Source of the DNA: Eledone cirrhosa
Taxonomy: Eukaryota
Reading direction: 5' to 3'
Assembly (NCBI GenBank): GCA_964016885.1
Contig: OZ024744.1
Coordinates: 60,574,001-60,638,000, forward strand
DNA: 64,000 nt
Positions 16,481-48,022 of the stretch are shown piece by piece. The notes under the pieces were generated by a model. The model was not told where the DNA came from, did not search any database, and saw only the letters and a program-made list of their open reading frames with translations. Position 1 is the first letter of the stretch; each line of letters starts with the position of its first letter. The position numbers and the translations under genes were made by a program.

Positions 16481-17689
16481 ATTATTACGATTTATTATTC
16501 TGCACATCAAAACAAAATGTAGTAAAAAAAAAAGGGCAAGAAAATATGCACAACTGACTATATTATTTGTCAGACTACCTGTGGATAGATAACAAGCATT
16601 TAAAAGCCATTTTCCCTACCAAATCAAGAGCTAACCTTGTGAACCATACATGTTTCACACTTATACAGGTTTTTAACGCCTTTCATAGTGCTGAACAAGA
16701 GAGGGGGTTGACATAAAGTCAATTAGATGCAACCTTAGTAAATTACTGGTATGTACATGGTATTTAATTTGAAGGAATTAAAAGCAAGTGTCCACCTTGG
16801 AAGGATTTGAACCCTGAACATAAGAGGGAGAAAAATATAATGCATCTTAGCCTGGTAATTATCACTTCTACCAACTCACTACTACTACCCCTTCACTACA
16901 ATTGTATAACCAATACAGTTGTATTAAGCTGTTTTATATGTTAATTGCTAAACTGTTATACAGTTGACAATATATATGTATATATAATTTAAGTATATAT
17001 GTGTGTGTGTGTGTATATATTATATAGGAAGGTATAAACACAATAGTGGCACCAAGTGGTTTCGACTTGTGTCCAGCAAGCTTTTTCAAGTACATAATAT
17101 ATATATAATATATGGCCGTCCAACCCTTGCTCGGAGGTTAAGCGGACATTAAAGGATGATAATAATTAATAGTAATATATATATACACCTCCTGTAAATT
17201 ATTTAAGAAAGGATGAGATTCTATTTTTTATAATTGTTACAAAACAAAACAAAAAAAAAATTTAAATACAGCCAGATGAAAAATAAAATATGTAAGACTT
17301 CAGCAAAATATGAAAATAAACCAATTGAATGTCACTTGTCTTAATTTTCTGACTTGCTCCTTCTCCAAACCTGTTATGTGAACATCAATTATCTAGACTT
17401 ATGGACTTTTTTAACTTTTAACATCCTGTAATAATTTATCAGAAAATATCTGATATGTGAGTTTGTTGATTCAAATGTTTATAGTATCTTTAATAATGGA
17501 CAGATTGTTGTGAAAGTTTGTAGTGTTAAAGTAAAGCCTATACATTTTAATGTGATGCAGTCATAAGGGTATCTTGTCTTGCCCAATAATGGTTTCATGT
17601 AGTACAAGATGTTAAGATTTAACCAGCTATACTGTATGTCAACTGAGCTTGAGAATATTTGCTTACCATGAAAGATAGGTCAGGTGAAA

Positions 17690-20192
17690 TTATAGATATG
17701 CTTTATCAGAAGTAAGTGGATGTGTACAGAGTGCAAAAGGTGGGGTGAAAGTGTATCTCGACCAGATTCTATTTGAAGAACAGAAGTTAGAAACAATGAA
17801 ACAGTAGGCATAGTGGGTGCATTATTAGCAATGAAATAGACAGGTAATGTAATTAAGATGCTCAAGGTAAACAACAAAATAATTAATCTTAGACTTATCA
17901 TAAGTAACACTCCAGTAGCTGTTATATCTGCTTATGCACCACAGTTGTGACTCTGATGAGTAAAATATGTTTCTATAAGTTCCACTAGTAAACCAGCTGT
18001 GACTTATCTTGTGATTGGTAGATATTACTGTTTAGCAGTACCATGACGGCTACATTAGAGAACATTGTAGCTATAGATATAAGTACAAAAAAATGATGTG
18101 AGCTCAAGGCTCCTGGAGTTTTGTGATACAAATGACCTAATTATCCACAATGCGACTTCAGGAAACCATCCAGCCACTTGATCACTTACCAAACAAGGAA
18201 ACACACAAGCCAGATTGACTTTATACACACTGTGAAATAGGATAGACAGATGGTTGTGAATATTAATTTTTTTTCCTGATGATGAATATACCACCCAGCA
18301 TAAACTATAGACTATTGATTATGACTTCAGAATAAGAACTAGACAAGACAGAGACATAAGACAACCTGGAAAGGTTAGGAGTGGCAATTGAAAGAACTGT
18401 CTTATCAAAAATACATTCAGGGAGGTACTGTGTGATTGTATATAATGAGAAAGATGAACAGGACAGCTTGGAATTTTTATGGAACCTGCTTTGAGCCACA
18501 GATGAGATTTGAGTTACTAGCCAAACAGACGACTTAATGACAAAATATTGATAGAGCCATAAAAGCTAAACAATAGGATTGGCCAGACTAGAAGAAATGA
18601 AGCAATAAAGTACAATATCAAGTAGCTAAAAGAAAAGCCAGAGATCAGGGAAAGGAGAGGCTGAAAGTAGGTTTGCTTGTGTTCTATGTTGAACAAATTA
18701 GAGGTGCGAAGATTTTCAGGTTGTGAAGGCAATCAAGACATTGTTAGGGAAAAGTATTTCCAAAATAACATCACACCTACCCTCATTGATGTGCAAAAGA
18801 ATGAAGTTTGATAAAATAATGAGAAGTTATGGAATGCTGAAAATATTTGAAGCACAACTCAAGCAAGTCAGTCATGTAATAAAGTACTATAAGGTGGGGG
18901 AATGCTCTAGAAAGAAGCAACTATAAAAATAAGTTTTAGTACTACTAGTTAGGAACAGAATTAGTTTAGATGTAATGCAGTTTTGATTTGTGCCAAATCA
19001 AGGACTCTATTGACACTTTCTTCCTCATGAAACAACTGCAAGACTTCCTATCTAAGAGAAAGCCACTACAGCTAGCATTTTTTGATTTGGAGAAGTACTA
19101 TTATCTAGCTTGGCAGATTTAAGAAAACTAGGTAAAGATGAATAGTTTGAGCAATCTATTATACAGAAATGTGGGTAAAATGAGAGTTAACAGTGAGTTA
19201 AGTATGGAATTTAATGTACATATAGATTTATCATTGCACTTCTGGCCATTGCAGAAGAATAACTGGTTAAGCTAGATCTGTAGATCTAAAGAAATTCCAA
19301 ATGTGAAATAAAATTGTTGAATCAAAATTAAGTTAGCATAAGCCAAAGTTCTAGTAAGAAAAGAAAGTCAACAAAATTGTTGCCATCAGGGAAACGAATG
19401 TTCGATATGTAGAAAAGGAATTGGTAGGAACTCTATGCAATGAATGCATAAAGGAAGTGGGATCGCAGTGAGGTGAACAGAGATCATCTCTTTATGTGGC
19501 AGATGTACAAGCAAAGGCACATGATCTAGTAATTATTTGGATTCACAATCGTGAGGTTGTGAGTTCCATTCCTAGACTGGATGGCGCATTGTTCTTGAGC
19601 AAGACTCTTTATTTCACGTGGCTCCTTCTGCCAGGAGTTGCAGTCAGTAGATAGTTTTCAGCATCAGCAATGGAAAGACCAATGGAAATATTGTCTTGGT
19701 CTGATCTGACAAGATCCATCCCATTCAGTAAGTGAATGAAGTATTCAAGAGTCAGAGGCTGAATGCTTAAAATACCCCACAAAAGTGGTTGGTGGCTTCT
19801 GTTACATAGGTGACTTTATTAGAAGTGGAGGAGCATGCTCTGAAAGCATAGTAGCTAGAATAAGTTGAGGTAACTATTTCCTTCTGCAAGTAACAAAGAA
19901 ATCCTCAGTATGAAGCTTATGTTCCTAAAGCAATGCTGCACAGTAGAAAACATGGGCTTTATATGCAGATGTGCATAAACAATGAAGTACAGAGAATAAT
20001 TGGATGTCGTGTGCAATAGAAAAAGACTACTGGTGCAGACAGGTAGTGTGTGGATGATGATCATTTGGTAAAGAAGTACCAGGAAGACATGACCAGAAGT
20101 GATAAATAATCTCAAAGATGAGGAAGTAATGCAGCATTGAAGAAGACCCATGCAAGCATGGAAAAACAGACATTACAAGGATGATGATGATA
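17690..20192 (+). mobile_element. Old, heavily decayed near-full-length RTE LINE with a nested SINE (~19515-19630)
   Basis: Remnants of ISAYAPQ, LLEFCDTNDL, LDVMQF, LAFFDLEK and FCYIGD in colinear order; ends cccatgcaagcatggaaaaacagacattacaaggatgatgatga. Confidence 0.75.
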
Positions 20193-20940: not shown

Positions 20941-22356
20941 TTAACACATAAAAATGACCAACATGCTGAAGGACTTAAAAACATAGCAACATCAAGAGTG
21001 TATTATATTCCTTCCATCTACATGATCAGATCAGTAATCTGAACAAAATACAGCTCATTTGGATAACCAACATCTATCAAATTAATTGTCATGGTAAGTA
21101 TTTCATTGCAATTAAATGTAAGAATTGATTTTTATGCATGAAACACAATGAAACCAAATTGAGGCATTGCGTCAAAACAAGTATATATCTTATCAAAACT
21201 ACAAATAACCCACCACATGAAGAATCAATCAACTCTTTTTACTTATTAAAATACTAACACCAGTCCATCCACAGGTTAAACCCACAGCTGCTGTTGACAC
21301 TCACTTTCAACTGAGTAACCATACACTGAAGAGTTTTGCTAAAGAATACATGCTGCTCAGTTTGAGAATCAACTCAACATTACAATCATGAGACCAAAAC
21401 CCTAACCCTGCGTGAATTCCCATGCTCTTGGAATATTAGCCTCCTAATTGTGGAGAACGGTTTCAGATTTTGTTTTCAGGAATCATTTGATGGATAAGGA
21501 AGAAGTTTTCCTTAAACCAGAGACCCAAGTGCATTACCTGTGCCAGAGGTTTAGCCCTTTCGATATATTGTCAATAAAAGATACTGCTTATAATTTTTTT
21601 AATAGTAATATAGCTATTTTACAATTCAACTGTTTGAAACATAACTCAATGATTTTTACATAAAATCATGATTGAAGCTTTTTAGATTAACATTTTAAGA
21701 GAGAAGCAAAAGCAGAGTTGTATATACAGACTCTAAACCATATATTTTATCTTATCCACCACACTATAACTTTCTAGTAACCCCGAGAAGAATATCAACC
21801 CTAAGTTTGACAGGACCTATAAAGGTAATGGATTTTGCACACTAATAATCTCTTATTTTAGAAACCATTATTTTTCACCATTGTCAAAATTCAGATTTGT
21901 TTTTGTTGCATAGTGTCAAGAATTAGAATAATAGACACAATAAGCACCTTATTTACAGCCATCAATGTCACAGGCTAATATTTAGAATGTCAATTTAAGT
22001 GAAACTTTTTTTTTTTTGTAGTGATTTATAAGGAAAATTCAACATGTCTTTTTGTAGGAAAGAGACTGACTCAGTAAACAGGTTAACTTTTTATAACTGT
22101 AGCAAATCATTCAATATATTTCAATAATGAAAGGAGATATAAAATATAATAAAATAACTCGGACACAAAAGGAAAACCAAATGAAACACCTTTATTTCAC
22201 TTGCATACCAATGACAAATTAAAAATTTATGGATCCAAGGAATTCTCCAAAAATAGTATAATAAAATTACTTGTATTCACCAATGTTAAATTACTAAAGT
22301 AATAATCAGACATATTAAAGCTCTAAGACTATATTATGTAAATAATTAAATCATTA

Positions 22357-22396
<40 letters not shown>

Positions 22397-22405
22397 TATA
22401 TGATA

Positions 22406-22442
<37 letters not shown>

Positions 22443-22554
22443 CAATACATGGCACATATATGATACATGATAAATATGATATATTTATATATAATATATA
22501 CAGTATATGATAGATGTATATGAAACAATACATGGTACATATATGATACATGAG

Positions 22555-22585
<31 letters not shown>

Positions 22586-23002
22586 TAAGGCTAATAAGGC
22601 TAATTAAAAAGGCAGGGGCTAGTAAAGATGAGATGTGTAGATCTAATCTGATTGCTTCAGAAAGAAGTAAAAGATTAGTAAGAGAGAAAGAAGGAAAGAG
22701 GAAGAAATTGTTTGCATGTTATGTCCACCCACCCCTCCCATCTCAAGGATTATTTTGGTGAATTATAGAATAGAATTGTTTGGAAATTTGGTAAAAAGTT
22801 ACCAGTAGAAGCTATTGCAATAACAAGGAATGTATTATTTCTTCTACAAGATGTAATAATTAGTGCAGTAGTATGAATCCTGCCAGCACCACAAAATCAA
22901 TTTCTAAATATATTGCTATTTTATATGGGGGATGGGTCTTTCTCATCTCAAATTTTGTTTTCATGAGGGCCAGCCAGTCAGGAGATACCACTTGATATAG
23001 AT

Positions 23003-23038
<36 letters not shown>

Positions 23039-23993
23039 TATGTAGATAAATAGCAATATATAGCCCTGCCTTGCTGCCATTTAAAAGAGAATATTGCTAT
23101 TTCCAACAAATTCTATTGCGAGGAGAAAAGGGAGGGGAGCATAATTAAAACTTCAATAAATTGCCAAGCTTTTTCATGCTACTGAGGAATTTTCCGTTAT
23201 GAGACAACATTACAATACTAATACAATTACTTTTACATAAAGCATTTACAAGTTAATAATAATTGCTGACCAAAACCTAAGAATTTAACATGGTGAAAAC
23301 TTAGTATCATCACTTACAATATGAGGAACTGGTATATCATTACAATATACATAATTTTTTAATTTTTATTTTTTACAAAAATTGAACAAAAACTAGGGAA
23401 TGGCAAAATATAAAAGCACATAATGTGCATGTCATTCACACCAAAATACAAAACTGGTCAACTGAACAAAGCGACCTCAACTCTGGCCAAAAAGGTGTGA
23501 AAAAATAGGAACTCTAAAACTGAGAATCTTGTAATCATTTTAATATATATATATATATTTTAAATAAATTTCTTCAGATAAGTCTTTCAAACCAGCAAAA
23601 AATATTAATTTTAAATGCCAGGCCTTAGATGGTGCTGCTGCTGTTGATATTTTTATTTTTTATTTTCATTTTGCTGGGAATCAAAATAGTTGATGGATTG
23701 ATTAGAAAAAATAACATTGCAAAATATTAAATATATAGTTGTATATGAAAAGTGTGGTGAAATAGTAAAGTATTTCAAAAATAATAAACAGATACCAAAA
23801 AAAAAAAAAAAACAAAAAAAAAAAAAAAAAAAAACACCTATGGATCTTATCAAACACACCATATTACATTTGTGCTCAGATAAAAAAAAAAAAAAAAGGG
23901 AACGCAGCTAATTTGATATGGCTAAAATGGCAGACTTCACAACCTTCTCTAACAGATGGAAGTCACAATTAAATAAATAAAAAATATACATTT

Positions 23994-24035
<42 letters not shown>

Positions 24036-24511
24036 CCTCCCCTTCCACCCATCCAAGCAAATTCCCTGATTAAAAAAGGAACATAGGTGTGTATCAGCAG
24101 TGAGCAAGTACCAGGCAGTGACCTTAACTAATTTGTTTTTTGTTTTGTTTTTAAAAAAAAAATTAAATAAATAAATTGCCATATAGATATATATAAAAAT
24201 TACAAAAATAAAAACTTTCAAAAAACAAAAGGAAAAAGAATCCAGGCTAAATCTATTATTGTAAATATAAGTTTAAAAATAAAAAAAATTATATTTTCCA
24301 GTGTGTGTGTGCGTACGCATGTACACACACAAACATAACATAAATCCATTCCAGCCCCTAGAGATTTCAAGAGCAAAATGTCAAATGGTGTATTTACAGA
24401 AAAGATCCACTGCTTACAGTAAGTCTTCAAATATATCACTGCCCAGAACAAAGCACAAACTGGAAAGCAGTATAAGTTCTAATAAAAAATAAGAGGAAAA
24501 AAAAACTTCCT

Positions 24512-24547
<36 letters not shown>

Positions 24548-24940
24548 TTTTTTCTTTCATTTTTCTTTTTTAAAATGTTTCAAAATAAAGTTTCATCAAT
24601 AGGGAGAAAAATATGAAAAAAGTAAAAAATAATTTCTTAGGGAGAGGAGGAAGAGAAAAAATACTAATTTTTTTTTGTTTAATTATCAGTGTAAATATAA
24701 GAGAAATGCTGAGGATGCTTGCATATCTAATGAGATGTGGATTTAATAACATTGTTCCTGTAATACATGTTAAGCACCAACAGGAAAAGAGAAGTTCCCC
24801 AGGACCGATTAAGAAAAATATTTTTTTTTTTTTTTTTTTTTTTACAGCTACAGACAAAGTCTGTCTGCTTTTCACCCCTCCTAGCCTGCTGCAGCCATTT
24901 TCATAACTCCACAAGTCTTGATAGATTTAACAGCTTGTTT

Positions 24941-25017
24941 TATATATATATATATATATATTGTATATATATATGTATATATATATATTGTATATATATA
25001 TGTATATATATATATTG

Positions 25018-25077
<60 letters not shown>

Positions 25078-25091
25078 TGTATATATATGTG

Positions 25092-25126
<35 letters not shown>

Positions 25127-25323
25127 ATACATATATACATAATATACATATATACATAATATACACATATATATATACATATACATATATACATAATATA
25201 CACATATATATATACATATATACATAATATACATATATATACATATATATATATATACATATATATATATACATATATATACATATATATATATATATTA
25301 TATATATTATATATATATATATG

Positions 25324-25365
<42 letters not shown>

Positions 25366-25445
25366 CATATATATATTATATATATATATGTATATACATA
25401 TATATATATACATATATACATAATATACATATACATATATACATA

Positions 25446-25477
<32 letters not shown>

Positions 25478-25527
25478 ATATATATATACATATATATACA
25501 TATATATACATATATATACATATATTA

Positions 25528-25597
<70 letters not shown>

Positions 25598-25668
25598 GTA
25601 TATATACATATATATATATGTATATATATATATATGTATATATGTATATATATATATATATGTATATA

Positions 25669-25713
<45 letters not shown>

Positions 25714-25756
25714 ATATATGTATATATGTATATATATGTATATATGTATATATATG

Positions 25757-25821
<65 letters not shown>

Positions 25822-25900
25822 GTATGTATATATATATGTATGTATATATATATGTATATATATATATATATGTATATATATGTGTATATATATATATGTG

Positions 25901-25932
<32 letters not shown>

Positions 25933-25942
25933 TATGTATTTA

Positions 25943-25983
<41 letters not shown>

Positions 25984-25986
25984 TTA

Positions 25987-26060
<74 letters not shown>

Positions 26061-26062
26061 CA
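24941..26062. repeat. Compound (TA)n microsatellite with TG/CA interruptions
   Basis: Directly visible; source of the YIYI ORFs. Confidence 0.97.
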
Positions 26063-27642
26063 CATCATGAATATATTAAATATAAATTATACATATGTAA
26101 TACAATAATGTGTTATACATTATATGTATGTGTGTATATAGATATGTGTGTGTGCACGCGTGTATATATATCCTAAAAAGTGGACTTTAGTAGTTAAACA
26201 CAGGAACACCTAGAGTATTACAATTTCGCTCAGAAACTGCTGTTCAACATAATCTATATCTCCACTTCCATATTTTAAGAATATACACATAGCCACCTAA
26301 TTTGCATCACACTCTTAATTTTTCCAGTGAGACATCTCATACTTAGTTCCCATGCCAATCCTGTGTTTTAGAGATTAAAAACCGCTTAACAGAGATTTAG
26401 CTACTTTCTTTTAAAGTTCTTCAAAAGAACAATTACATTTTTTTTTTTCATTTTTTTAAGAGTCAGGAAATGACACCCTAAAAAAATTTTTAAATAGAAA
26501 TAAGATATTGTAAAATAACCAGAAATGCAAGCAACTGGACCAATGGATAAACTAATGAAGTGGGGGTAAACTGGTTACTGGCATGTTGGTATTTAAAGAG
26601 AGAGGGGGCTAGTGAAGAAAACTGGAATTGGTAATTTATTTAAACAACCTTCTCTATCACCATTATCTTCAACATCAGGGAAAGTGACTTTGAAAAGCTA
26701 ATTGATTAAATTAGTATGTAAATTTGGAAAGGGAAGGGAAGGACAGTGAAAGAGGCTTGAAAAATAACTAGAGAAAAAGAATATAACAAAACACTATAAT
26801 AGCCCTATAAGCAATGCTTGTTAACTCATTAACCTAGCTTTATATCTATGCAAATGCCGAAGCATTATGTAAGTCTAAAAAGAAAGAGGGAGGGAGGGCA
26901 ATGAATGAGGGATGATGAAATGGGAGGAGAGTGGTAAAAACTGAAATCCTCATTTCCTTATACAAATGAAACCAGATTGTCCTGAAGAACTGGGTAATTT
27001 ATATAATATAATATATATATTTCTTTATTTTGTTTAATCATTGTGTAGGCTGTTATATAAGCATGCTCAAAAGGGAGCACAACTTTCTCCCAGCTCAAAT
27101 TGATTTACTGGATACAAAAATTTTGCAGATAAAATATACATCCTGTATATTATAAGAAAAAGAAAGAAAAAAAATGCAAATAAAAAATAAAACTAAATAT
27201 ATATATATTATATATATAGTGTCTTGTACAAGATATATTATCTTGGCCTTGGGTTATTGAAATGTATATAAATCATTACAGTATGAGTAGAAAATAAAAT
27301 AATTAGAAAACATTCTTTCAATGAAAAAATTTAGTATATCTTTTCGAAACATATATGGGGAATAAAAATAAAATCAACAAAAATTTTGTTTAAAAAAAAA
27401 AGATTTTTTAAATTCTTTTCTTAAACATTTTATAATTTTTTTAAAATTTTGATTACATAATCAGGTGGGAAACACAACAGACATGACATACATATTTAGA
27501 TTGCTTCTAAATAAAATCTTTGAAATTATTTTAACCGTTTACTGTGTAATACAACTTCAAACTGAAGCAAGTTTTTTTTTGTTTTTGTTTTTTTTTTGTT
27601 TTTTTGGGGGTTTTTTTGGAGACATCTAAAACAACAATCACA

Positions 27643-27681
<39 letters not shown>

Positions 27682-28014
27682 CACTTGAGCTTTTTCACTA
27701 TACTTATGTGACAAAAAGCACTCTAAGTTCTGAGAATTTAAACCACAGTAAACGGTTAAAAAATATTAACATTTTATAAATTAAAATAACATAATATCTT
27801 TATAATATATATATATATATACTTTTTTTAAATAAAGCATTACATTTCAAAATATGGAAAATAAATAAAATCCCTTAAGGCACAGCAAAACTTTGTCATG
27901 TAAATTTGAGTGACTAGAATTAAGCATGTTGCATAATATAAAAAAAAAGACAAATGGGAAGGACTGAAAATTTCTATGGAATATCTAAGATTTGGGGTTT
28001 TAAAAGCAAGATTT

Positions 28015-29822
28015 AATATACATACATAGGTATATACATACATATATATATATATATAAATAAATACATACATATATATATACATACATACATACATACA
28101 TACACATATATATATGTATGTGTATATATATATATATAATACATACATATATACATACATACACATATATATGTATGTATTATATATATATGTAATACAT
28201 ACATATATATAATACACATATATATATATATAATACACATATATATACATAATACGTATATATATACATAATACGTATATATACATATAATACATATATA
28301 TACATATAATACATATATATACATAATACATATATATATACATAATACATATATATATATATAATACATATATATATATATAATACATATATATACATAT
28401 ATAATACATATATATATATATATAATACATATATATAATACATATATATATATATAATACATATATATATATATAATACATATATATATATATAATACAT
28501 ATATATATATATATAATACATATATATATATATAATACATATATATATATATAATACATATATATATATATAATACATATATATATATATAATACATATA
28601 TATATATAATACATATATATATAATACATATATATATATATAATACATATATATATATATAATACATATATATATATATAATACATATATATATATAATA
28701 CATATATATATATATATAATACATATATATATATATATAATACATATATATATATATATAATACATATATATATATATAATACATATATATATATATAAT
28801 ACATATATATATATATAATACATATATATATATATAATACATATATATATATAATACATATATATATATATAATACATATATATATATATAATACATATA
28901 TATATATATAAATACATATATATATATATAAATACATATATATATATATAAATACATATATATATATATAAATACATATATATATATAAATACATATATA
29001 TATAAATACATATATATAAATACATATATATATATAAATATATATATATAAATACATATATATAAATACATATATATATATAAATACATATATATAAATA
29101 CATATATATATATATAAATACATATAAATACATATAAATACATATATACATATAAATACATATATACATATAAATACATATATATATATAAATACATATA
29201 TATATATAAATACATATATATATATATAAATACATATATATATAAATACATATATATATATATAAATATATATATATATAAATACATATATATATATATA
29301 AATATATATATATATAAATATAAATACATATATATATATAAATACATATATATATATAAATACATATATATATATATATATAAATACATATATATATATA
29401 TATAAATACATATATATATATATATAAATACATATATATATATATATAAATACATATATATATATATAAATACATATATATATATATATATATAAATACA
29501 TATATATATATATATAAATACATATATATATATATAAATACATATATATATATATAAATACATATATATATATATATAAATACATATATATATATATATA
29601 AATACATATATATATATATATATATAAATACATATATATATATATATATAAATAAATAAATACATACATATATATATAAATACATATATATATATAAATA
29701 CATATATATATATATATATAAATACATATATAAATAAATACATATATAAATAAATACATATATAAATAAATACATATATAAATACATATATATACACACA
29801 CATATATATATATATATATATG
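28015..29822. repeat. 1.8-kb compound (TA)n array with AATAC then AAATAC interruptions
   Basis: Directly visible. Confidence 0.97.
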
Positions 29823-30180
29823 CATGTATCATTAATAAAAGAAATTTGATGGGCAGGTGAGCATGGGGGGAATAAGCAACAAACAATAAAATATGTAATG
29901 AATATTTTAAATTAGCAATAGGACAAAAATAGTTTGTTTTTTTGTTTTTGTTTTTTGTTTTTTGTTACAAGATAAAATTCAAGAAAAATAATTTGTTACT
30001 GATGAAAACAACAAGTTAACACAAAACACTAATGAGAATTATAGATTCAGAAACCTGTTAGTGTGTGTATATGTGTATATACATACACACACACGCTTAA
30101 TATTGCTGGTTGCATGAGTGCTTAACACACAGATAAAACTTCAGAAAAACAGGGTACTGACTCAATCTTAAAGTATATTT

Positions 30181-30222
<42 letters not shown>

Positions 30223-31320
30223 CACACAATTCTTTTTTCTTCTTTAAAGTCTGCTTAGGAGTTGTGAGCCAGCTGTTTGGAGACCCAAAATAAATTCTTT
30301 TAAAAGAATCACTGACATCAGGTTAGTTGAAGGAATGATAAGGTTTCTTTGTCACGTTTTCAATAATAGCATTCATTAGCATACAGGTTATATAACAGTT
30401 GTTTGCAGAAAAACAATGGATGATTGACATTGATTGATCTACTAAAATATTTATATGAAAATGTCTACGAAGCATATAGTAAGAGTGGAATTTTAAATTA
30501 TGTTTTACTTTATGCAAAACTATTACAATGCATAATTTTAGCTAAATAGGGAATATAACCCCTTGAAACAAACAAACAAACAAAAAATGGATCACCTCAC
30601 CTTTTCCTGTCTGAAAGGGTTATAGACTAGATTTATTTTCAACTATATATTTTATAGATAAAATAAATTAAGCATTCTTGTAGCTTTGCATAAAGCAAAA
30701 CATATTTTGAAATTCTATATCATATCTATCAAGTTACTCAGAGACAACAACCTTCTGGAATAGATTAAAATTCACATAAGAGTAGAAAGAAAAAATGCTG
30801 TGCACTGCACAAATGGCAGGATTTACAATAAAAGGAGAATCCTAAACAATTACTTTGGTTTGATTGATAATTTAATCTGCACCAACTTTTATTAAAAACA
30901 CTGTAAATCCATCTGTACAACCTCACATCAAACTTGGAAGAATGTAAAATCCTACTGCAGAGTTTCAAGTCCATATATAATAACATTTCTAACACAAAAC
31001 ACACATAATAATTAATAATAATGTAATTTGCCATTCTCTAAACAATTTGAAAATGTAAATCTATATCGGGAGCAGAGACTAGTTAGGAGGAGAAGGAGGA
31101 GGAGGTATAGAGGAGAAGAAAGAGAAGAGTAGATTAATTAGAAGGAAGATGTGATGAACATTTAAAGTTTTAAAAAATCCACAATAAATATATATATATA
31201 TACATAACATACATACATACACACACACATACATACATACACGTACATATATATATATACACACCTATACATATACACACCTATACATATATATCTATAC
31301 ATATATACATACATATACAA

Positions 31321-31353
<33 letters not shown>

Positions 31354-31488
31354 AAGGTTAAACAAGGTTGAATGAATAAATTAATGAATAAAGTTTTACA
31401 ATAGATTAGAAGCACTCCACAAGTTGGTTTTCCGGAGTTATTATTAATTCAAAATATTAACAAATATAGACATTCGTGTGATCAAGTA

Positions 31489-31555
31489 TATTTTATTATA
31501 CATATTTCAGAGGTACTGAGCTATTTACAATAGTACATCCTCATCAGATAAAATA
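31489..31555 (-). ncRNA. Minimal type I hammerhead ribozyme (inverted copy, sense to the mei-P26-like transcript)
   Basis: Minus strand reads tattttat CTGATGA ggatgtactattgtaaatagctcagtacctct GAAA tatgta TA ataaaata; the core is intact. Confidence 0.78.
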
Positions 31556-32783
31556 AGATGATGCTTGACATACCTTGACTATGTTGATGGTTAAAATTCA
31601 GTCATGGCAGTGAATAGATTAGGACGAAACTCAATATTTATATACCTTAAGATTGAGACATGAAAAAATTATATAATACAGAGGGTGCGTGTGAGAAAGC
31701 TTATAAAGATACATAATAAATAACTACTAATATAATATAAACCTACAAAACTGTTAGAAATTTAAATAATTTAAATAAAGTAATATATGGATAACACATT
31801 ATTGTAGAAAGAGGAAGTGAAAGATAGAGAGAGAATGATTAGAAATATAGAATATGATATGCACGAAAGCAAAAGAAGAATTAAGGATAGCGAGAAAAGG
31901 AGGGAAAAAAAGTTTTATAGTCTAAAACACAGGGAGGGAGACATATTGTCATGGATAAACAGCGTATAATTAAATGATACAAAAATATATATTTGGGCAT
32001 AGCTTGGTGAATGATTAATTTCGAATTGTTAAATTATTTAGAAATAGTCAATCAATCAAAATATCAAATATATATCTGGGTGTAATTATATAATGGTTTA
32101 TTTTCGAATCCTTAAGTTAATTAGAAATAGTCAATTAATCAAATATATATATCCCAGCGCATCCGGATGACTGTTAAATTTCGAATCTTTATGTTAGTTA
32201 GAAATAATGAATTAATCTAATGGCATAAGATCAGAAATCTTATGCCATTAGATTAATTCACACCCAGATATATATTTGATATTTTGATTGACTATTTCTA
32301 AATAATTTAACAATTCGAAATTAATCATTCACCAAGCTATGCCCAAATATATATTTTTGTATCATTTAATTATACGCTGTTTATCCATGACAATATGTCT
32401 CCCTCCCTGTGTTTTAGACTATAAAACTTTTTTTCCCTCCTTTTCTCGCTATCCTTAATTCTTCTTTTGCTTTCATGCATATCATATTCTATATTTCTAA
32501 TCATTCTCTCTCTATCTTTCACTTCCTCTTTCTACAATAATGTGTTATCCATATATTACTTTATTTAAATTATTTAAATTTCTAACAGTTTTGTAGGTTT
32601 ATATTATATTAGTAGTTATTTATTATGTATCTTTATAAGCTTTCTCACACGCACCCTCTGTATTATATAATTTTTTCATGTCTCAATCTTAAGGTATATA
32701 AATATTGAGTTTCGTCCTAATCTATTCACTGCCATGACTGAATTTTAACCATCAACATAGTCAAGGTATGTTAAGCATCATCT

Positions 32784-32850
32784 TATTTTATCTGATGAGG
32801 ACGTACTGTTGTAAATAGCTCAGTACCTCTGAAATATGTATAATAAAATA
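32784..32850 (+). ncRNA. Minimal type I hammerhead ribozyme
   Basis: Stem I tattttat/ataaaata; core CTGATGA at 32792-32798; stem II gtactg/cagtac; GAAA at 32831-32834; minimal stem III A-tatgta-T; predicted AUA cleavage after 32842. Confidence 0.8.
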
Positions 32851-32891
32851 TACTTGATCACACGAATGTCTATATTTGTTAATATTTTGAA

Positions 32892-32928
<37 letters not shown>

Positions 32929-33120
32929 AAACTTGGTCCCACCAGTAATTTTTAAACATCAAGTAATTTAAACTATAGAAATTGTTTGTTTTTTTATTTT
33001 CTTTACACAAGTATTTCGTAAATAAAGAAAAATATATCCTTTGTAAAGCTATATTGAAAATTGAATGTAACCTATTAACACTTAATCAAGTATATATAGT
33101 ATATATATATATATCTACAT

Positions 33121-33187
<67 letters not shown>

Positions 33188-33280
33188 CACATCAAATCAA
33201 ATCAGAAGTGAGGAAAACAAGATGTTAACAAATACTAAAACTACACCTAATTAACACATTTTTACATTAATTTAACATTA

Positions 33281-33324
<44 letters not shown>

Positions 33325-33612
33325 TGCACATACATAAATAATACATATTTAGATTCTGATTTTAGTGAGAGCATCATTTTTTTTTGGCATAGTAGTTTTA
33401 GCAGTCAACAAATATTCAATTTCTAATACTATGAAAAACTTTAAAAGGTAAAGAAAAAAAAACCTTTTGAGAACCAAGAACCACCACATGTGGGATGAGG
33501 TTTGTTCCTGGTGTAGAAGTCAATGCATATAATATGAAGGTGTGAATAATAGATTAGAACTGTGCTAGTTGATACATGCATACTTGCAGACCCAGCTAAC
33601 AACAGTATACAC

Positions 33613-33677
<65 letters not shown>

Positions 33678-34334
33678 CGTGTGTGTGACCAACAGCAATT
33701 AGTTCTGATAAAGCCCTGTGTCTGTAACTATGCTCGGGTTGCATCAGTTATCTCAAGTCATTCTGCTAGTAGTTATAACAAATAGTAACTCCAGCTCAAT
33801 AATTCACAACTAGTGTCAGTGTGCTAAAAGAATATTCTTTCAGAGATAGCTACAGAATATTCAAATACAGATAATATATAAATCAGACATTTTTTCTTAT
33901 AATCTGTTGAAAGCATGATGAAAAAGGAGAGGAAGATTAGGTTAGAATATTAAATAATCTCTCTCACAACAAGTACCATCGAATTAGCTTGCTTTTTAAA
34001 GTAGCAACTCCTTCGATGGAATATCCAAGTTGGCAAAAACAACACTAATAAATTTGATATAGACAATTACAGAAGGGAAAGGGCATGGGATTAATTTAAT
34101 TTTTGAACTTTAAAAATAAAGAAATATTCTTTTTAGATATATATCCTTTCAGATCTGGCAGTAGAACAAAAAGGACTAGTATATATATATTTTATAGATC
34201 ACTAGCATTTTTTTTAAATATTTATAAAGGCTACACAGTCAAAAAATAAACATTTAAAAATTTCTCATGTATTTCAAATAAAATTTATTTACATTCAATA
34301 TTAAGGAGGTAAAAAGGAGATGTAACACAACTTC

Positions 34335-35444
<1,110 letters not shown>

Positions 35445-35522
35445 CAGGGTGTCTCCAAAAACGTATACATACTTTGATTAGAATGCTGTTGAAGTGTGTA
35501 TGCACTTTTGGGGGACACCCTG
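35445..35522. mobile_element. 78-bp Tc1/mariner-type MITE
   Basis: TA duplicated at 35443-35444 and 35523-35524. ~30-bp imperfect TIRs cagggtgtctccaaaa.../...ttttgggggacaccctg. Confidence 0.8.
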
Positions 35523-36174
35523 TATGTATATGTGTGTGTGTGTATATACACACACACACACATCTATATATGTGGGTGTATGTATATGTATGCACACACA
35601 CACACACACACACAACCAAACCAAATTGGTTCAAATCCATACTTGACATATTTCCATCGTATCAATAGGATTGAAAATACAGATTAACATTTAATATACA
35701 CCAATTTTTCCTTTATTCTTTTTAAATAAATTTCAAAGATGTCTAAAATGGAGGGAAATAGATGAAAGCAGAAAAAAAAAGAAGGAAGATAAGATGTAAA
35801 ATAAATGATTCAATACTGGGAGGAAAATATATATTTTTTTCGAATTGTACAAATTTAATGTGATCTTTTTTTTCACTGTTTTTTGTTTTTTGTTTTTTTT
35901 GGGGGGGGTTTTGTTAACTTTGGTACTGTTTTTAATAGCGAAAAGCCACCACAAAACAATTTAAATAGTGACAGCATTAATTCAGAGGCAAAAAGAAGAT
36001 ACAAAACACTGATTTGACAGTTTCTCAAACAGCCCAAAAACAAAATACTAGTTGCTGTAAAAACTAGCAGTACCAAGGCTCATTTTAATATAACTGAAAT
36101 TTGTATAAATAATCATTGGTGGAGGAAGGGGAGTTGTGGGGGGGGAATAAATGGGTTAACGAAATATAGATGAT

Positions 36175-36483
36175 CTATGTAATATATAAAGTATCTAGAA
36201 CAAGAACATGATGGTTGTTTTTAGCAAGTGTAACTATATAACCTTCAGAAGTTATATTGAGACCACAACAACGACTAACTTTGACATAAGGACACTCAAA
36301 TTCTCCTATAAGAGACCCGTCAGATTGGAATACAGCAACATGAAAGCGGTTACCATGACTGTCTCCAACCAAAACATCTCCAGCATCACTGATGTCAATT
36401 CCATTCGGGTAATTTGTGATACTTTCGCATCCGATACGTCTCAGAAACTGCCCTTCCTCATTGAATACAACAACACAGTGTCC
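36175..36483 (-). CDS. mei-P26: TRIM-NHL protein: last coding exon (309 nt including TAG)
   Basis: ttttcag acceptor. Encodes [102 protein letters not shown]. Confidence 0.96.
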
Positions 36484-40582: not shown

Positions 40583-42630
40583 TCATCATCATCATTTAAC
40601 ATCTCTATCTTCCACGCTAGCATGGGTTTAGACAGGAATTGTCCCACGTGAGGCAAGATTGGTTGTCTTGCTCGTATAGGACTGTCTGGCGGATTTTCTA
40701 CAGCTGGATGCCTAACACCAACCACGTTTACAGTGTGGACTAGGTTTTTACCGTGTTACCTACAAGGCCACATTACAGCGTGGACTGTGTTTTTTTTTTT
40801 TGTCGTGATACCTACACGACCATTTATTTAGGACCGGATGTTGTGACACCAACATAACTTTACAGAGAAAGGGGTGGGGCTAGTGGGATAGGGGTGTATT
40901 TTTGGTTAGGGGGTGCTTACTGACTGTAGGTTTCATTTTGTACTTAGGCAAGGCGGGTCTTCTGTATTACTACGTAGCGCCAAAGATCTCGGTCCAGTGA
41001 CATTGTCTTGGAGAGGCGTAAGTGTTTAAGGTCGGAATTTATCAAGTCGTCCCAGGTTTCTCTGGGTCTGCCTACTCCATAGCTTTCATCTATTTTGATC
41101 GCCCTGCACTTTTTTATACAGCTGTCGTCTTTCATGTGCATCACATGACCATACCAACGTAGTCTTCTCTCGAGTAAACAGCATCTGATCCCTCTTATTC
41201 CTAATTTCTCACTTAGTTCATTTATGCTTTGCCGTTCACGTATATTACTATTACACATCCAACGGAGCATGCAAGCTTCGTTCCTCTCCAGTCTGTGTAT
41301 ATCCTCTGCACACAATGCCCAGGTCTCACTGCCATGTAACATTGCTGTTCGTATGCAGGCATCATACAGCCTGCCTTTCATTTTTAGAGAGAACCCTTTA
41401 GTGGCTAATAGTGGTATAAGCTCTCTGAACTTTTTCCATCCCGTTCTGATTCTAGCTACTGTACTTTCAGAGCATCCTCCCCCACTGCTGATTTTGTCAC
41501 CCAGGTAACGGAAGGTGTCCACTATTTCTATAGAACCATCTGTGCAATGGAATGAGCTAGTATTCTGTGGGCACTTGCTACTACTTATTGCACCTGTCTG
41601 TGCACCGGCCACATATAAAATCTATGTTATTAGTTAGTTTACCTGTGATCCCACTACATCTTTTATGCACCCATACTTTGCATTTGGGACACAAGATGGA
41701 GTTTTTGCCTACTCTTTTCCTACACACTGAGCATGGCCATTTACCAGAGGGGACCAGTGCCCTATTTCCTTTCCTACATACTAGAACTTTAGTCTTATAA
41801 AAGTTAATTTTAAGGCCTTTTGATTCTAGGCCATGCTTCCAAGTTTGGAATTTCTCCTCTAGTTCAGCCATTGATTCAGCTATGAGGGTTAGATCATCTT
41901 CGTATAGAAGTTCCCATGGGCAGCCAGTCTTGAATTCCTCTGTTATAGCCTGAAGGGCAATAATAAATAGGAGGGGGCTAAGGACAGAGCCCCGATGAAC
42001 ACTGACTTTTACGCTAAATTCTTCACTATATTTGTTATTAATTCTAACCTTGCTGACCGTTTCTTTATACATAGCTTGTATAGCTCTCACAAGCCATTCA
42101 TCTACACCTAGTTTTCTAAGAGATAATGGAGCGGGGGACTGTCAAAAGCTTTCTCCAAGGCAACAAAAGCTAAGTATAGGCGTTTACTTTTAGCTAGGTA
42201 CTTCGGTAGTTATCGTACAAGGAAAAGAGCATCTGTGGTACTTTTACCCGACACAACCCCAAACTGCATTTCATGTAAATCAATTCGCTCTCTGATTAGT
42301 TGCGCTATTACTTTTCTGGTCAATTAATTTAATGCCTCTATAGTTTCCCCTATCTAGAGCATCTCCTTTACCCTTGTAGCAGTTAATGATGATGCTGCTA
42401 CGCCAGTCTTTTGGTATGACCCCCATTCTGGATGACTTGGTTTACAATCCAGGAGACCATAGTGTGTCCCACCGATCCAGATGCTTTCAGCATTCCAACA
42501 ACTATCTCTGAAGGCGCAGCTGCTTTGCCTATCTTCATATCTTTGATTGCCTTACTTATTATACTACCTTTAACTTGCACTGCTGGTCCTTCTATTGGAT
42601 CGATTTGGGGCAGACTAACTTTTTCCCACT
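40583..42630 (-). mobile_element. Relatively young 5'-truncated RTE LINE (RT plus C-terminus plus 3' extension)
   Basis: ORFs 41581-42090 (SVLSPLLF, ELLYEDDL) and 40944-41612. (CAT)n tail on + at 40583-40593; (TA)n at both flanks. Confidence 0.92.
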
Positions 42631-42631
42631 T

Positions 42632-42694
<63 letters not shown>

Positions 42695-43079
42695 TGATTG
42701 AGAGAGAGAGAGAGAACTAATATTTTTTGCACTTCTACATCATGGAGAATCAAAGTGTACTGATGTGACGGCTGTGGCAACTAGCATACATACACCCATA
42801 CATAGTAGAAAAGCCAGTTACCCAAGGTGTCACAATGGGACTGAACACGTCAACCATATGGTTCAAATTAAACTTCATCATACAGCCATGCCTGTGCATA
42901 TAAACACACACATTCTTTTATAAAGTGAAACTATTAAGACTCGTTCTTCGGGTGACTTCCTTTTCACTTGAACTATATATATATAGTTGTGTGTATGTGA
43001 TTTGTAAACTGTATTAAAAATTCTATGTATCAGCCATTACGGTTCTCACTTCCCACCCACCCCACCTCCACCACATTCG

Positions 43080-46000
43080 GTATACATGCCCGACGCTGTA
43101 TGCTAACCACTCCCTTGTGAATATATCATAGAACAGACAAGGGGCAGACGGCGGTTCCGTAAGCTGTAATGTAGGCAACTCGTCTAGGAGAGCTACCACT
43201 CCGAATAAATTGGTTCGGAGTGGAGAAGTCCCTTAAGTCCAGCAAGACAACTTCCCTAGTGCTGGTGACACGAATAAAAACACCCAGTCCATGCTGTAAA
43301 ATGGAGGGGTGGATAGGGCTCCTGAGTCCAGTAAGACAACCTCTTTAGTGCTGGTGGCACGAATAAAAGCACCCAGTCCATGCTGTAAAGTGGTGCTAGT
43401 GTTAGGAAGGGCATCCAACCAGTATGTATACTACTGCCAAAATCTATGAGTGGAACGAATGAAATTTGCAACAACTGTGTAAACAGCAATAACACTAACC
43501 ATGTTAGGGCTGGGCATGGTAGTGGGGTGGCTGGTGCGGCCATGTGCGAGAACACCGACGATCATCAAGCAATTGCACAAAAACTGCGTAAACAGCAATA
43601 ACACTAACCATGTTAAGGCTGCGCACGGTAGTGGGGTGGCTAGTGAGGCCATGTGTGAGAATCCCATGACTGTCATCAGGCAATTGCACAACAGGAAAAG
43701 AACGAGACGTCGCACCTCAGAGTTGCCACACAATGTTGGCACTCTCACAGGTAGATCTGGTGAGATAGTGGTGATGCTGGAGAGAAGGTATGTGGATGTG
43801 TGCAAGAGGCGAGATGGAGAGGTGCCTCTGCAAGACTAATCGCAGGCAAACATTGTAGTTATAAGCTTTTCTGGATGGGTAATGATGGGTTAGGTGGGGT
43901 GGGCATATTACTGGCTGAGAGATGGATCAATAAGACAATAGAGGTAGTTAGAGTTAGTAATAGAATAATTAAGCTTAGGTTAGTTGTAGGCAAGATAGTA
44001 TTGACAATCATCTCTGCCTATGTTCCCCAGGCAGGCCTAGGTAAAGAAGAGAAAGACTGCTTTTACAAACAGACTCAATGACAGAGGACAGAGACATCGT
44101 TATGCTGGTAGGGGACTTCAATGGACATGTTGGACAGCTCCAGGATGGATATACTGGGGTACATGGTGAGCACGGTTACGGTTCAAGAAATGAAGAAGGA
44201 GTGAGGCTTCTTGAATTTTGTGATGCAAATGCACTAACCATTTGCAACACTAACTTCAAGAAGCCTACCAACCACCTAATAACCTACAAATCAGGCGAGC
44301 ACATGAGCCAGATTGACTTCCTGCTAGTTAGACAGCGAGACAGACAAATGGTGTCAAATACTAAGGCATACCCCGGGGAAGAATGTACCCCACAGCATAG
44401 GTTAGTCATTAGTGGCATCTCAGTAAGCAAGAGAAAGAATGAGACATACAGAAAGGTCTGGAAGCTAAAAGACCTTTCATTAAAATATAAATTTAGCAAA
44501 GCCCTTCAAGATGTGTATGTCGAAAAAGAAGACGATTTAGAGTTGTATGACATAGATGATAACTGGAATTTCTTGCGTGACAACTTACTGCAGGCTACTG
44601 AAGAAACTTGTGGTTGGGGCAGAGCTTCAACCAGACAGAGTGACCTGGTGGTGGAACAGCACAGTAGATAAGGCCATTAGAGACAGAAGACTGGCCTGGA
44701 AGACTTGGAAAAATGGTCGGAGTAGAGAAGGATACACAGCCAGTAAGAGAGAAGCTACATGTCAGGTGTACTTAGCACGCAGGGAGGCTGAGAGTAGGAG
44801 GTTTGCCAATGTTCTGCGACGGGAAGATCAGAGGCGGGCGGTGTTCCACATTGCAAGGCAGTGTGTCAATGCAAATCAGGATGTTGTTGGAGATAAGTGT
44901 GTCCGGAATGATGCCGGTGTACTTAGTGTCACGAATGATCAGAAAAAGGAGGCCTGGAAATGTCACTATGAGAGCCTGATGAATGTGGAGAACGAATGGG
45001 AGAGAGAAATTACCCCCAGTAGACGCAACAGAGGGACCAGCTATTGAGATTGATGAATATAGGGTACAAGAGGCAATTAAGGGAATGAAGAATGGTATGG
45101 CTGCTGGACTGTCAGGGATAGTTGCTGAGATGCTGAAGGCATCAGGAGAAGTAGGCACTAAACTAGTTCCACGCATCATTAATCAAGCTATATATGGTGG
45201 TGTCATACCCAAAGACTGGTGCAGCAGTATTCTCATAAATTGCTACAAAGGTAAAGGGGATTCTCTAGAGAGGAGCAATTATAGGGGCATAAAGCTGATG
45301 GATCAGGTTATGAAAGTGGCAGAGAGAATATTAGCACAACTGATTAGAGAAAGGGTCAAGATGCAGTTTGGTTTTGTGCCTCAGAAAAGTACAACAGATG
45401 CCCTCTTCTTAGTGAGGCAACTACAAGCGAGGTTCTTAGAGAAAAATAAGCCACTATACTTAGCTTTTGTTGACCTAGAGAAGGCCTTTGATAGGGTACC
45501 CCGATCTGTCATCTGGTGGTCCCTAAGGAAACTAGGTGTAGAGGAATGGCTTGTGAGAACAGTGCAAGCTATGTACAGGGGTGCTGTCAATAAAGTGAGA
45601 ATAGGAATGGAGTTTAGTGAGGAATTCCAGATACAAATAGGTGTACATCAGGGTTCAGTCCTCAGCCCGCTCTTGTTCATTATAGTCCTCCAAGCCATAA
45701 CAGAGCAGTTTAAGACTGGCTGTCCATGGGAACTTCTCTATGCTGACGATCTGGTTCTTATAGCAGAATCAGTAGAGGAGCTAGAGAATAAATTCTGGCT
45801 ATGGAAACAGCAGTTGGAAGCAAGAGAACTGAGAGTGCTAAGACAAAAGTATTGATAAGTAGAAGAGAGGATAATACTCTGATTCCATCAGGGAAATGGG
45901 ATAGCAGGCAAACTAACAGATAGGGAAAACTACGTATGCAGTAGATGTACAGGGAAAGTTGGCAGTAGTAATCGCAATATAGACACATTTTTCCAATGCA

Positions 46001-46620
46001 GGTGGGTTCTTTAGAAGTGGTTGATAGCTTCCGGTGCCGAGGTGATCAGATTAGCATGGAAGAGGGGGTGTACCGAGGCCATAGTATCTAGAATAAGGAT
46101 GGGTTGGAAGAAGTTGAGGGAGCTGCTTCTTCTGTTGACAAAGAAGTGTTTCTCCTTGCGTACGAAAGGACGGTTATATAATGCCTGTGTGAGATGCATG
46201 ATGCTGCATGGTAGTGAGAAATGGGCAGCAACTTCAGAAGATATGCGACGGCTGGAGAGAAATGAAGCAAGCATGCTCCGTTGGGTGGGCAATGTCAATG
46301 TGCGTGAACGACCAAGGATGGACGAGTTGAAAAAGAAACTGGGTATAAGAGGGATAAGTTGTGGTGTGCAGGAGAGAAGGCTGAGATGGTATGGATATGG
46401 AGGATGACCGCTAGGTAAAGAAGTGCCAAGAAATTCCAGTAGAAGGAAGACGCAGTAGAGGTAGACCACGAAAAACATGGGCTGAGGTGGTGAGAGCAGG
46501 CCTCAGATCGCTGAAACTCACCGAAGAGATGACAAAGGACCGTAACAAGTGGAGAGATGCTGTGCTGAATAGGACCCGTCCAACCCTTGCAAGCAAGGAA
46601 AAGCAGGCATAAAATGATGA
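43080..46620 (+). mobile_element. Essentially full-length, frameshifted RTE LINE (5' UTR, APE, RT, 3' tail)
   Basis: NVGTLTGR, QEARWRG, ISAYVPQ, GDFNGHVG, QIDFLL and QHRLV (APE). NYRGIKL, QFGFVP, AFVDLEKAFDRVP, GVHQGSVLSPLLF and YADDLVL (RT). Tail ccaacccttgcaagcaaggaaaagcaggcataaaatgatga. Confidence 0.93.
43455..43692 (+). repeat. ~111-bp tandem duplication in the RTE 5' region
   Basis: aactgtgtaaacagcaataacactaaccatgttagggct...atcatcaagcaattgcaca occurs twice. Confidence 0.8.
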
Positions 46621-46656
46621 TATATATATATACATACTTATATAGGAACGAGTAGG

Positions 46657-46752
46657 ACCCTGACGGCTGAGCTCAAGCCGTTTCGACGGCTAATTCTGGA
46701 CTAAATGAAAATTTTTATCCTGGTAAATGAATAGCCGAGCTTCTCAGGAGGT
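46657..46752 (-). ncRNA. Inverted copy of the variant hammerhead-like motif
   Basis: Minus strand reads acctc CTGAGAA gctcggcta...tagccgtc GAAA cggcttgagctcagccg TC agggt. Stem I is weaker than in the + copy. Confidence 0.55.
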
Positions 46753-47667
46753 AATATGCCATATATGGTAAAAGTAATTGTCACAAGGATTGGTCAAAAG
46801 TTTGTTGTTGAGACACATAATTCTATCATGGCATTTTGTGGAAGGAAGGGGTAGCTGAACTTGCCAGTAAAAGAAAGAGGGAGAGGGAGTGGAGGAAACC
46901 CAGTCGTGCGTTGAAAGTGACAACTACAGCAGAATCCTAAGGATAAGGGGTCAAGAGGGGGAGGAAGTCGAAACAATAAGTAGATGTATATGGAGTAAAT
47001 CTATATAGAAAAATAAGAATGTTAAAAATATAAAAACACAATTTCTGGTTACTATTCCCCTACCACAATCATCAAATCTCTCACTGGTACTGCCAAACTA
47101 TAGAAAAGTTTAATAGGTGGGGCGGGATACTAAATACGAGATTGTAGTGAAAGAATATTATGAGTTAGTAGTACTCGGCCTAATCTATCTTACAATGACA
47201 GGTCAACATATAGGGGGCCAAAATACAAAAAAAAAAAAAACCTAATACGACATAATAATTCAGAGTCCCGAAACTAATACAAAATATTAATTCAGAATCC
47301 CGAAAATGAATACTAATACGATATATAAGAGTACCGCTACGATGCATAAATTTTAATGCAAACTACATAAATGCTCGTACGATATATAAGAAACAATTAA
47401 TACAAAAAATTGATTCAGAATTCCCCTATTTCTAGCACATCTGCTATAAAAGGCAGAGTCGGCCAATTCTATCATAGAATTGGGGGTGGGGTTACTGAGG
47501 TTACAGAGGACCGAAGGGCTGCCTCGGGGTGGGTGAGAAGGTGAAAAGAACGACGACAAAGAAGGGGAACTGGGGTGGAAGGACTAGGAAGGGATGGGGG
47601 GAAGGAGGAAATATAGAGGAAACGATAAAAAATATATAAGAAAATCTTACGTCTACCTTTGTAAGCA

Positions 47668-47862: not shown

Positions 47863-48022
47863 ATTCTGAATTAATTTTTTGTATTAATTGTTTCTTATAT
47901 ATCATACGAGCATTTATGTAATTTGCATTAAAATTTATGCATTGTAGCGGTACTCTTATATATCGTATTAGTATTCATTTTCGGGATTCTGAATTAATAT
48001 TTTGTATTAGTTTCGGGACTCT

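Follow-up and report, generated by a model that had tools for sequence, protein, structure and literature searches.

The Hydra clade of Penelope-like elements (PLEs) with a C-terminal endonuclease (EN+), which includes Hydra-1_Obim from Octopus bimaculoides and Penelope-13_HM (Craig et al. 2021, PMC8557442), offers the closest described counterpart of the locus reported here. In that paper, PLEs are described in which an inverted, 5'-truncated copy is accompanied by a tail on one side only, and its supplement assigns an inverted 5' copy and one hammerhead per strand to the Hydra element Penelope-13_HM. Elsewhere, palindromes at head-to-head junctions have been read as the outcome of self-priming (PMC3846280), two PLE 3' ends have been matched to two start sites of reverse transcription (PMC11167929), and hammerhead pairs on opposite strands, about 100 to 700 bp apart, have been reported in metazoan PLEs (PMC4209133). 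As to activity, a single minimal Schistosoma hammerhead gave no cleavage in vitro and its dimers cleaved weakly (PMC4209133); the hammerhead of an Anolis PLE (PAc) cleaves in vitro, is dispensable for insertion and is described as having no RNA-seq ends at its site (PMC11167929).

We analyzed a 64,000-nucleotide stretch of Eledone cirrhosa DNA (contig OZ024744.1, positions 60,574,001 to 60,638,000; the window, whose internal numbering is used throughout) that contains a fold-back at 31353-32897. We consider it highly probable that this structure consists of two 3' ends of a Hydra-type Penelope-like element, each truncated at its 5' side and joined head to head, likely by one insertion, and that its hammerheads are likely inactive passengers. 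The first-pass annotation of the window had described near-perfect inverted arms of about 640 bp, and these proved to be real: the inverted segments lie at 31442-32084 (643 nt) and 32259-32897 (639 nt) and differ by four substitutions (left/right positions 31531/32808, 31537/32802, 31567/32772 and 31864/32475), as well as by a 4-nt indel and a mismatch at the junction. Each arm carries two derived substitutions of its own. The complete left arm (31353-32236, minus strand) is a dispersed repeat that corresponds to the 3'-terminal 880 nt or so of the 3' untranslated region (UTR), or pLTR, of the putative Hydra-type EN+ element, truncated at its 5' side; the right arm (32259-32897, plus strand) repeats this 3' end in inverted orientation, is likewise truncated at its 5' side, lacks a tail and extends to the short 3' end of the family.

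Three features of the structure had been missed in the first-pass annotation. The left arm alone carries an optional 3' tail of 89 nt (31353-31441, minus strand), and family copies terminate either at its outer limit or at the equivalent of 31442, beside TA repeats. At the inversion junction there is a hairpin with a perfect stem of 24 bp, an exact complement, and a loop of 5 nt (32208-32260); the fold has a z score of -10.3. The fold-back is also bounded by TA repeats on both sides, namely, a TA/CA microsatellite at the left insertion end (31184-31352) and a (TA)n tract at the right (32898-32925); both insertion ends lie within these repeats, where a target-site duplication is indistinguishable. 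Imperfect internal repeat units of the element, about 83 nt each, occupy 31983-32221 on the minus strand (about 72% identity by self-BLAST), and the junction sequences showed that the right arm omits 124 nt across these units. In a computed fold, minus-strand RNA of 31353-32897 formed one long duplex (-1089 kcal/mol).

Genome assemblies are known to have difficulty with inverted PLE structures (PMC8557442). As to a chimeric fold-back introduced during assembly, the two derived substitutions private to each arm, the two different family-typical ends and a junction that has its own deletion leave this explanation with next to no credibility.

The fold-back sequence belongs to a dispersed repeat family, the best copies of which are 81 to 93% identical to it (BLAST; 61 matches among the best 40 of 3,975 candidates scored). 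A 29-mer taken from the 3' half of the hammerhead has 4,230 exact matches in the 3.0-Gb genome, compared with 0 for the reversed control. At 29 loci, copies are alike upstream and unlike downstream, and they stop at one of two fixed ends, the equivalents of 31353 and 31442, after which TA repeats follow; the hammerhead lies about 55 nt from the short 3' end or about 145 nt from the tailed one. In longer copies, the left-arm sequence is found about 1.3 kb downstream of an open reading frame (ORF) of the reverse transcriptase (RT) plus GIY-YIG type, in which the motifs DKT, YRDD, CxCX5C, YNYIG, CxxC and CxH can be read and which remains open for up to 750 amino acids. With an ORF of at least 2.25 kb and a 3' UTR of about 2.1 kb, the element would measure roughly 4.5 kb.

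It is concluded that the element is an EN+ Penelope-like element, its RT and endonuclease domains being assigned by motif. The Penelope-type origin that the first-pass annotation had proposed for the ribozyme proved right; both arms are 3' UTR of such an element. In an alignment of 31 proteins, made up of two family ORFs and the 29 longer sequences among 67 homologues, CxCX5C was found in 26, DKT in 23, [YF]RDD in 30, CxxC in 29 and CxH in all 31; there was no cysteine pair (CCHH) between the GIY and YIG positions, and the glutamate and asparagine that CxxC and CxH flank were invariant. Within the family itself, CxCX5C is present in three copies (L032, L054 and L055) and changed in a fourth (L053), and DKT is present in L053 and L054. 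A Pfam search found no family in the element's own ORF, an RVT_1 match being obtained for only 2 of the 31 aligned relatives, and a PDB search with the same ORF gave no match.

Based on these motifs, the family would be placed in the Hydra clade. It has in common with that clade the CxCX5C linker, DKT, the lack of CCHH, and CxxC and CxH near the C terminus; the (TA)n target, a hammerhead near the 3' end, a U before GAA and a palindromic helix III; and the inverted 5'-truncated copy that places a hammerhead on each strand. There are also differences. The clade has RWK, whereas the one family copy inspected (L053) reads RWH at this position, upstream of a frameshift; [RK]W[KR] occurs in 21 of the 31 aligned proteins. 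Hydra elements are described as "generally <3 kb," which is a tendency rather than a criterion (PMC8557442), compared with roughly 4.5 kb here, and the optional tail measures 30 to 40 bp in other reports (PMC8557442, PMC11167929 and PMC3846280) compared with 89 nt here. The length can be attributed to the 3' UTR, which contains an approximately 520-bp duplication in addition to the 83-nt internal repeats. Since the hammerhead sequences differ, the element represents a family distinct from Hydra-1_oBim, as judged from the sequences in the supplement of PMC8557442.

Several other characteristics of the family were observed. The duplication in the 3' UTR is a tandem one with about 85% identity between its halves, as seen at L031 (6992-8069, in the sense of the element; contig C7 near 57.382-57.383 Mb) and in other long copies. 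The ORF linker between the RT and the endonuclease has an asparagine-rich stretch in L032, L033 and L053; N-rich inserts have been reported in rotifer Penelope ORFs (PMC3846280). A diverged subfamily, represented by two copies near 2586-3157 of L040, has lost 12 nt of the hammerhead, which leaves it with a shorter helix II and loop 2 and with its core in place. At L034 (1-1644, element sense; contig C1 near 110.67 Mb), about 3 kb upstream of a family copy, there is a second Penelope-like ORF, with CxxxxCxxC and YVG, which looks like that of a different PLE clade.

Both arms contain a hammerhead motif with the core CUGANGA...GAAA...UH and helices I, II and III, in the order stem I, CUGAUGA, helix II, GAAA, a short palindromic helix III, UA and stem I. 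The minus-sense motif is located in the left arm at 31489-31555, with predicted cleavage after A31497, and the plus-sense motif is located in the right arm at 32784-32850, with predicted cleavage after A32842; the triplet is AUA in each case, and both motifs are of the minimal type I. Helix I comprises 8 bp, all A-U, in both arms, and helix II has 10 positions with a C-C or U-C mismatch. Helix III has only 2 bp in the monomer and offers an 8-nt near-palindrome to a dimer, in line with the first-pass annotation, which had pointed to cleavage mainly as dimers for such motifs. That annotation had also regarded the hammerhead in each arm as intact. This description holds for the core nucleotides, which are unchanged in both arms; it does not hold for the left copy as a whole, in which helix II has acquired two derived changes.

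These changes, at 31537 and 31531, are a C-to-U substitution at a CpG, also present in 2 of the 38 other aligned copies, and a G-to-A substitution that occurs in none of the 38 and breaks the distal G-C pair. The right arm retains the family-type helix II (-7.6 kcal/mol), compared with -4.0 kcal/mol in the left arm, where the computed probability of a central helix II pair in the isolated motif falls from 0.93-0.96 to 0.00; the helix is predicted not to form in isolation. Of the two copies, the sense (minus) one has decayed further, and it is likely that it would be poorly active even if it were unmasked. Both of the derived substitutions in the minus-sense arm fall in helix II (32 of about 626 nt) and weaken it. 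This distribution could reflect selection, although the observation is post hoc and concerns two changes, one of them at a CpG.

Among the other aligned copies, 33 of 38 have an intact hammerhead core, and variation is lower in core columns (1.8%) than in the upstream 3' UTR (4.6%). Across 38 copies and 23 pairs, 837 pairs were the same, 8 had one-sided changes, none had two-sided changes, 21 were broken and 8 had gaps, the copies being too close to one another for covariation. The pair beside the core is G-U in 37 of the 38 copies, and a literature search found no paper on a hammerhead with a G10.1 and U11.1 pair. The search with hammerhead models that had been proposed for this locus gave no hammerhead match in Rfam, either for the whole window at the gathering threshold or for 31000-33200 at an E value of ≤10; the other weak Rfam matches were rejected, as they corresponded to microsatellites or to the hairpin at the junction. 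When two copies of the hammerhead of either arm were cofolded, the dimeric active fold was not the minimum-energy structure, nearest-neighbor folding being a method that ignores tertiary contacts. Each strand of the fold-back has a single sense hammerhead motif and hence no dimer partner in cis.

The most elaborate proposal for this locus is that of a co-opted, self-locked switch, in which an active hammerhead would stay hidden within the duplex until it is freed by editing or unwinding. The first-pass annotation had anticipated that, in a read-through transcript, the sense ribozyme would be enclosed in a duplex, and our computations agree: masking of the sense ribozyme segment by the other arm amounts to -100 kcal/mol. 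This geometry, together with the intact core nucleotides of both arms, speaks for such a switch. However, the geometry is the default of the family, the sense copy is destabilized and has no partner in cis, A-to-I editing of a perfect duplex would be expected from established hammerhead chemistry to strike core adenosines, and no route of unlocking is evident. A lock on a weakened copy that lacks a cis dimer partner has little to lock, and we regard the switch as extremely improbable. The related suggestion of a self-locked cleavage element serving the neighboring gene finds no support, given the same findings of a routine layout, a more decayed sense copy and a missing cis partner. The two hammerheads are likely to be inactive passengers rather than a host switch.

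We postulate that the fold-back arose as follows. The endonuclease of the element would have cut a TA tract, and reverse transcription would have covered about 880 nt before halting at about 32236. The cDNA would then have snapped back, primed its own synthesis and copied itself for 24 nt, giving the 24-bp hairpin, after which synthesis would have jumped 124 nt between internal repeat units and run on to the short 3' end. An origin of the inversion at the time of insertion is suggested by the right arm, the end of which coincides exactly with the short 3' end of the family, within (TA)n. The two arms have in common six substitutions that occur in no other aligned copy and two short arm-specific sequences that are restricted to them in the whole assembly, and they differ from each other at 4 of 626 sites (0.6%), compared with 5% between the arms and the nearest other copy. 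A single event fits the shared private substitutions and the arm-only sequences, and later gene conversion would fit them too.

It is from these same data, the private substitutions, the two restricted sequences and the low divergence between the arms, that one could argue that the palindrome was formed or homogenized after insertion, through fold-back repair or arm-to-arm gene conversion. However, copying of the first cDNA strand yields shared private changes equally well, and the exact stop of the right arm at the short 3' end within the TA repeat, with a corresponding arrangement in 11 of 13 other pairs, argues for inversion at insertion; we consider formation or homogenization after insertion quite unlikely. 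With a published calibration of a distance of 0.09 per 25 million years (PMC13282606), the insertion would be about 1 million years old without conversion and older with it. Judged by the 0.6% divergence of the arms, the insertion looks young and lineage specific.

The arrangement is not peculiar to this locus. Among the first 100 listed matches of the 29-mer, all on contig C1 between 1.6 and 106 Mb, 26 belong to 13 head-to-head pairs of neighbors less than 10 kb apart, and there are two direct pairs and one tail-to-tail pair; 0.9 close neighbors would be expected at random among these 100 matches. The tail is on one arm only in 11 of the 13 head-to-head pairs and on both arms in the other 2, and a TA-rich repeat adjoins all 26 ends. 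The inverted layout is a routine insertion product of this family. If C1 is representative, the genome would hold about 550 such fold-backs (roughly 390 to 750), a floor because an exact match is needed in both arms. Since the 3' UTR always carries a hammerhead near its 3' end, any inverted pair will have one ribozyme per strand, and since the same layout recurs at many other sites, the fold-back in the window is likely an ordinary by-product of insertion.

Private substitutions common to both arms, three to eight in number, were seen in six of seven arm pairs examined (the arms in the window and those of L038, L040, L041, L033 and L024); these numbers are close to the median of seven private substitutions in solo copies. 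In L038, two changes that break the hammerhead core are common to both arms. These shared private changes point either to error-prone synthesis of a first strand from which the second arm was then copied or to gene conversion.

A TRIM-NHL gene of the mei-P26/brat/ncl-1 group lies upstream on the minus strand, and the element occupies the interval from 3.3 to 4.8 kb beyond its stop codon. The last coding exon and the stop codon are at 36175-36483 (minus strand; NHL repeat), with further exons extending to 61380 in a tblastn map. This exon is 100% identical to "brain tumor protein-like" of Octopus vulgaris and Argonauta hians, and the names among the database matches to the gene are mixed (brat, ncl-1 and mei-P26). 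A candidate 3' UTR of about 14 kb (22191-36174, minus strand) would end at a compositional edge, where an AATAAA at 22196-22191 is followed by a U/GU-rich tract. The interval from 22.2 to 36.2 kb (7.3 kb of nonmicrosatellite DNA) has a GC content of 28.5% and a U-over-A skew of 0.126, compared with 35 to 38% and 0.007 to 0.045 in control downstream and intronic DNA. RTE-like LINE fragments were found in 13 clusters elsewhere in the window and none between 19.9 and 40.9 kb, a gap that also covers the last introns. When the best 40 of 2,172 candidates were scored, nonself matches of the UTR-like DNA lay on or beside two long microsatellite arrays; a control stretch gave 33,823 candidates, a comparison that at most hints at a unique sequence. 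Against a long UTR stand the kilobase TA arrays, which would have to lie inside it, and the AATAAA motifs described below. Weighing this evidence, we give a roughly even chance, tipped slightly in its favor, to the element site lying within a long 3' UTR isoform of the mei-P26/brat-like gene. In Drosophila, mei-P26 has highly elongated 3' UTR isoforms in the head (PMC9470587), and if the 14-kb UTR is real, flies and octopods would have in common that genes of this group possess very long 3' UTRs.

Elsewhere in the window, many broken RTE-like LINE fragments are found at 1-19900, downstream of the gene, and at 40900-50300, in its long intron. A high-copy repeat of about 500 bp with internal inverted matches occupies 14658-15167, and position 14726 on the minus strand fits a loose CUGANGA...GAAA pattern; the repeat may be another hammerhead-bearing PLE end.

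Coleoids are known for heavy ADAR editing. If the region were transcribed, a duplex of about 640 bp would be expected, and by analogy with inverted Alu pairs it would likely be edited by ADAR. It can thus be envisioned that the structure has the same transposon origin and that its duplex now affects a host mRNA through hyper-editing, nuclear retention, Staufen binding or Dicer cleavage, with no ribozyme catalysis. On origin, this explanation overlaps with the one that we prefer. The near-perfect duplex, the UTR-like composition of 22.2-36.2 kb with its distal AATAAA and U/GU-rich tract, and the elongated head isoforms of Drosophila mei-P26 all favor it; since the flanks look like a long UTR in which LINE fragments were not detected, the insertion may also matter more than an intergenic one. 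However, three minus-strand AATAAA motifs precede the element (35717, 34289 and 32998) and four more lie inside it (32624, 32565, 32102 and 31497), before the duplex is completed or at the ribozyme. AATAAA is not significantly depleted on the sense strand (10 observed, compared with 12.1 ± 3.5 in shuffles), and the apparent youth of the insertion also argues against an effect on the host. An effect on the mRNA is therefore possible and, on balance, rather unlikely. A further elaboration, in which the fold-back would be an editing-gated module within a 14-kb neural mei-P26/brat-like 3' UTR, the duplex and ADAR together deciding the cutting, retention or degradation of the long isoform, is in our view very improbable; if it were true, the module would be one of several hundred ribozyme-in-duplex cassettes seeded by a transposon. 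Among the papers listed on octopus and hammerhead ribozymes, as represented by titles and the beginnings of abstracts, nothing was found on such a UTR element or on this locus.

Taken as an isolated finding, a head-to-head pair of PLE ends matters little: a known retrotransposon clade leaves such footprints as a matter of routine, and the literature already contains inverted pairs that have one hammerhead per strand. Its interest lies in the frequency with which the family makes long, near-perfect fold-backs (about 550 by the extrapolation given above), which makes it a plausible source of ADAR and small-RNA substrates in an animal group with heavy editing. In addition, the neighboring gene is a neural RNA regulator whose 3' UTR may be very long and include this copy, and the presence or absence of the insertion would constitute a natural test of the effect of a long duplex on the mRNA.

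At the level of the ribozyme, the motifs resemble the minimal type I hammerheads of metazoan PLEs (Cervera and De la Pena 2014, PMC4209133) in their long helix II and their short, palindromic, dimer-suited helix III, as well as in their genome-wide dispersal and their occurrence in opposite-strand pairs. They differ in that the published motifs have a "highly conserved" G10.1-C11.1 pair (PMC4209133), where the window family has G-U, and in that helix I of the window family consists of 8 bp that are all A-U. Non-LTR retrozymes (bioRxiv 10.64898/2026.07.22.740005) likewise carry a PLE-derived type I hammerhead in a noncoding unit; unlike the fold-back, which has one motif per strand, they are described as direct tandem arrays with at least two hammerheads on the same strand. 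Classification of the fold-back as a non-LTR retrozyme was rejected, each of its strands having one sense motif.

Two kinds of element in host 3' UTRs invite comparison. The hammerheads of mammalian Clec2 cleave as single units and have been conserved, and the inverted Alu pairs of human transcripts affect the mRNAs that carry them. The locus described here resembles both, the former in its possible 3' UTR location and the latter in the long duplex formed by an inverted pair of retroelements. Unlike the Clec2 hammerheads, however, the ribozyme in the window would be a recent transposon passenger, and its likely behavior at the RNA level is that of an inverted Alu pair.
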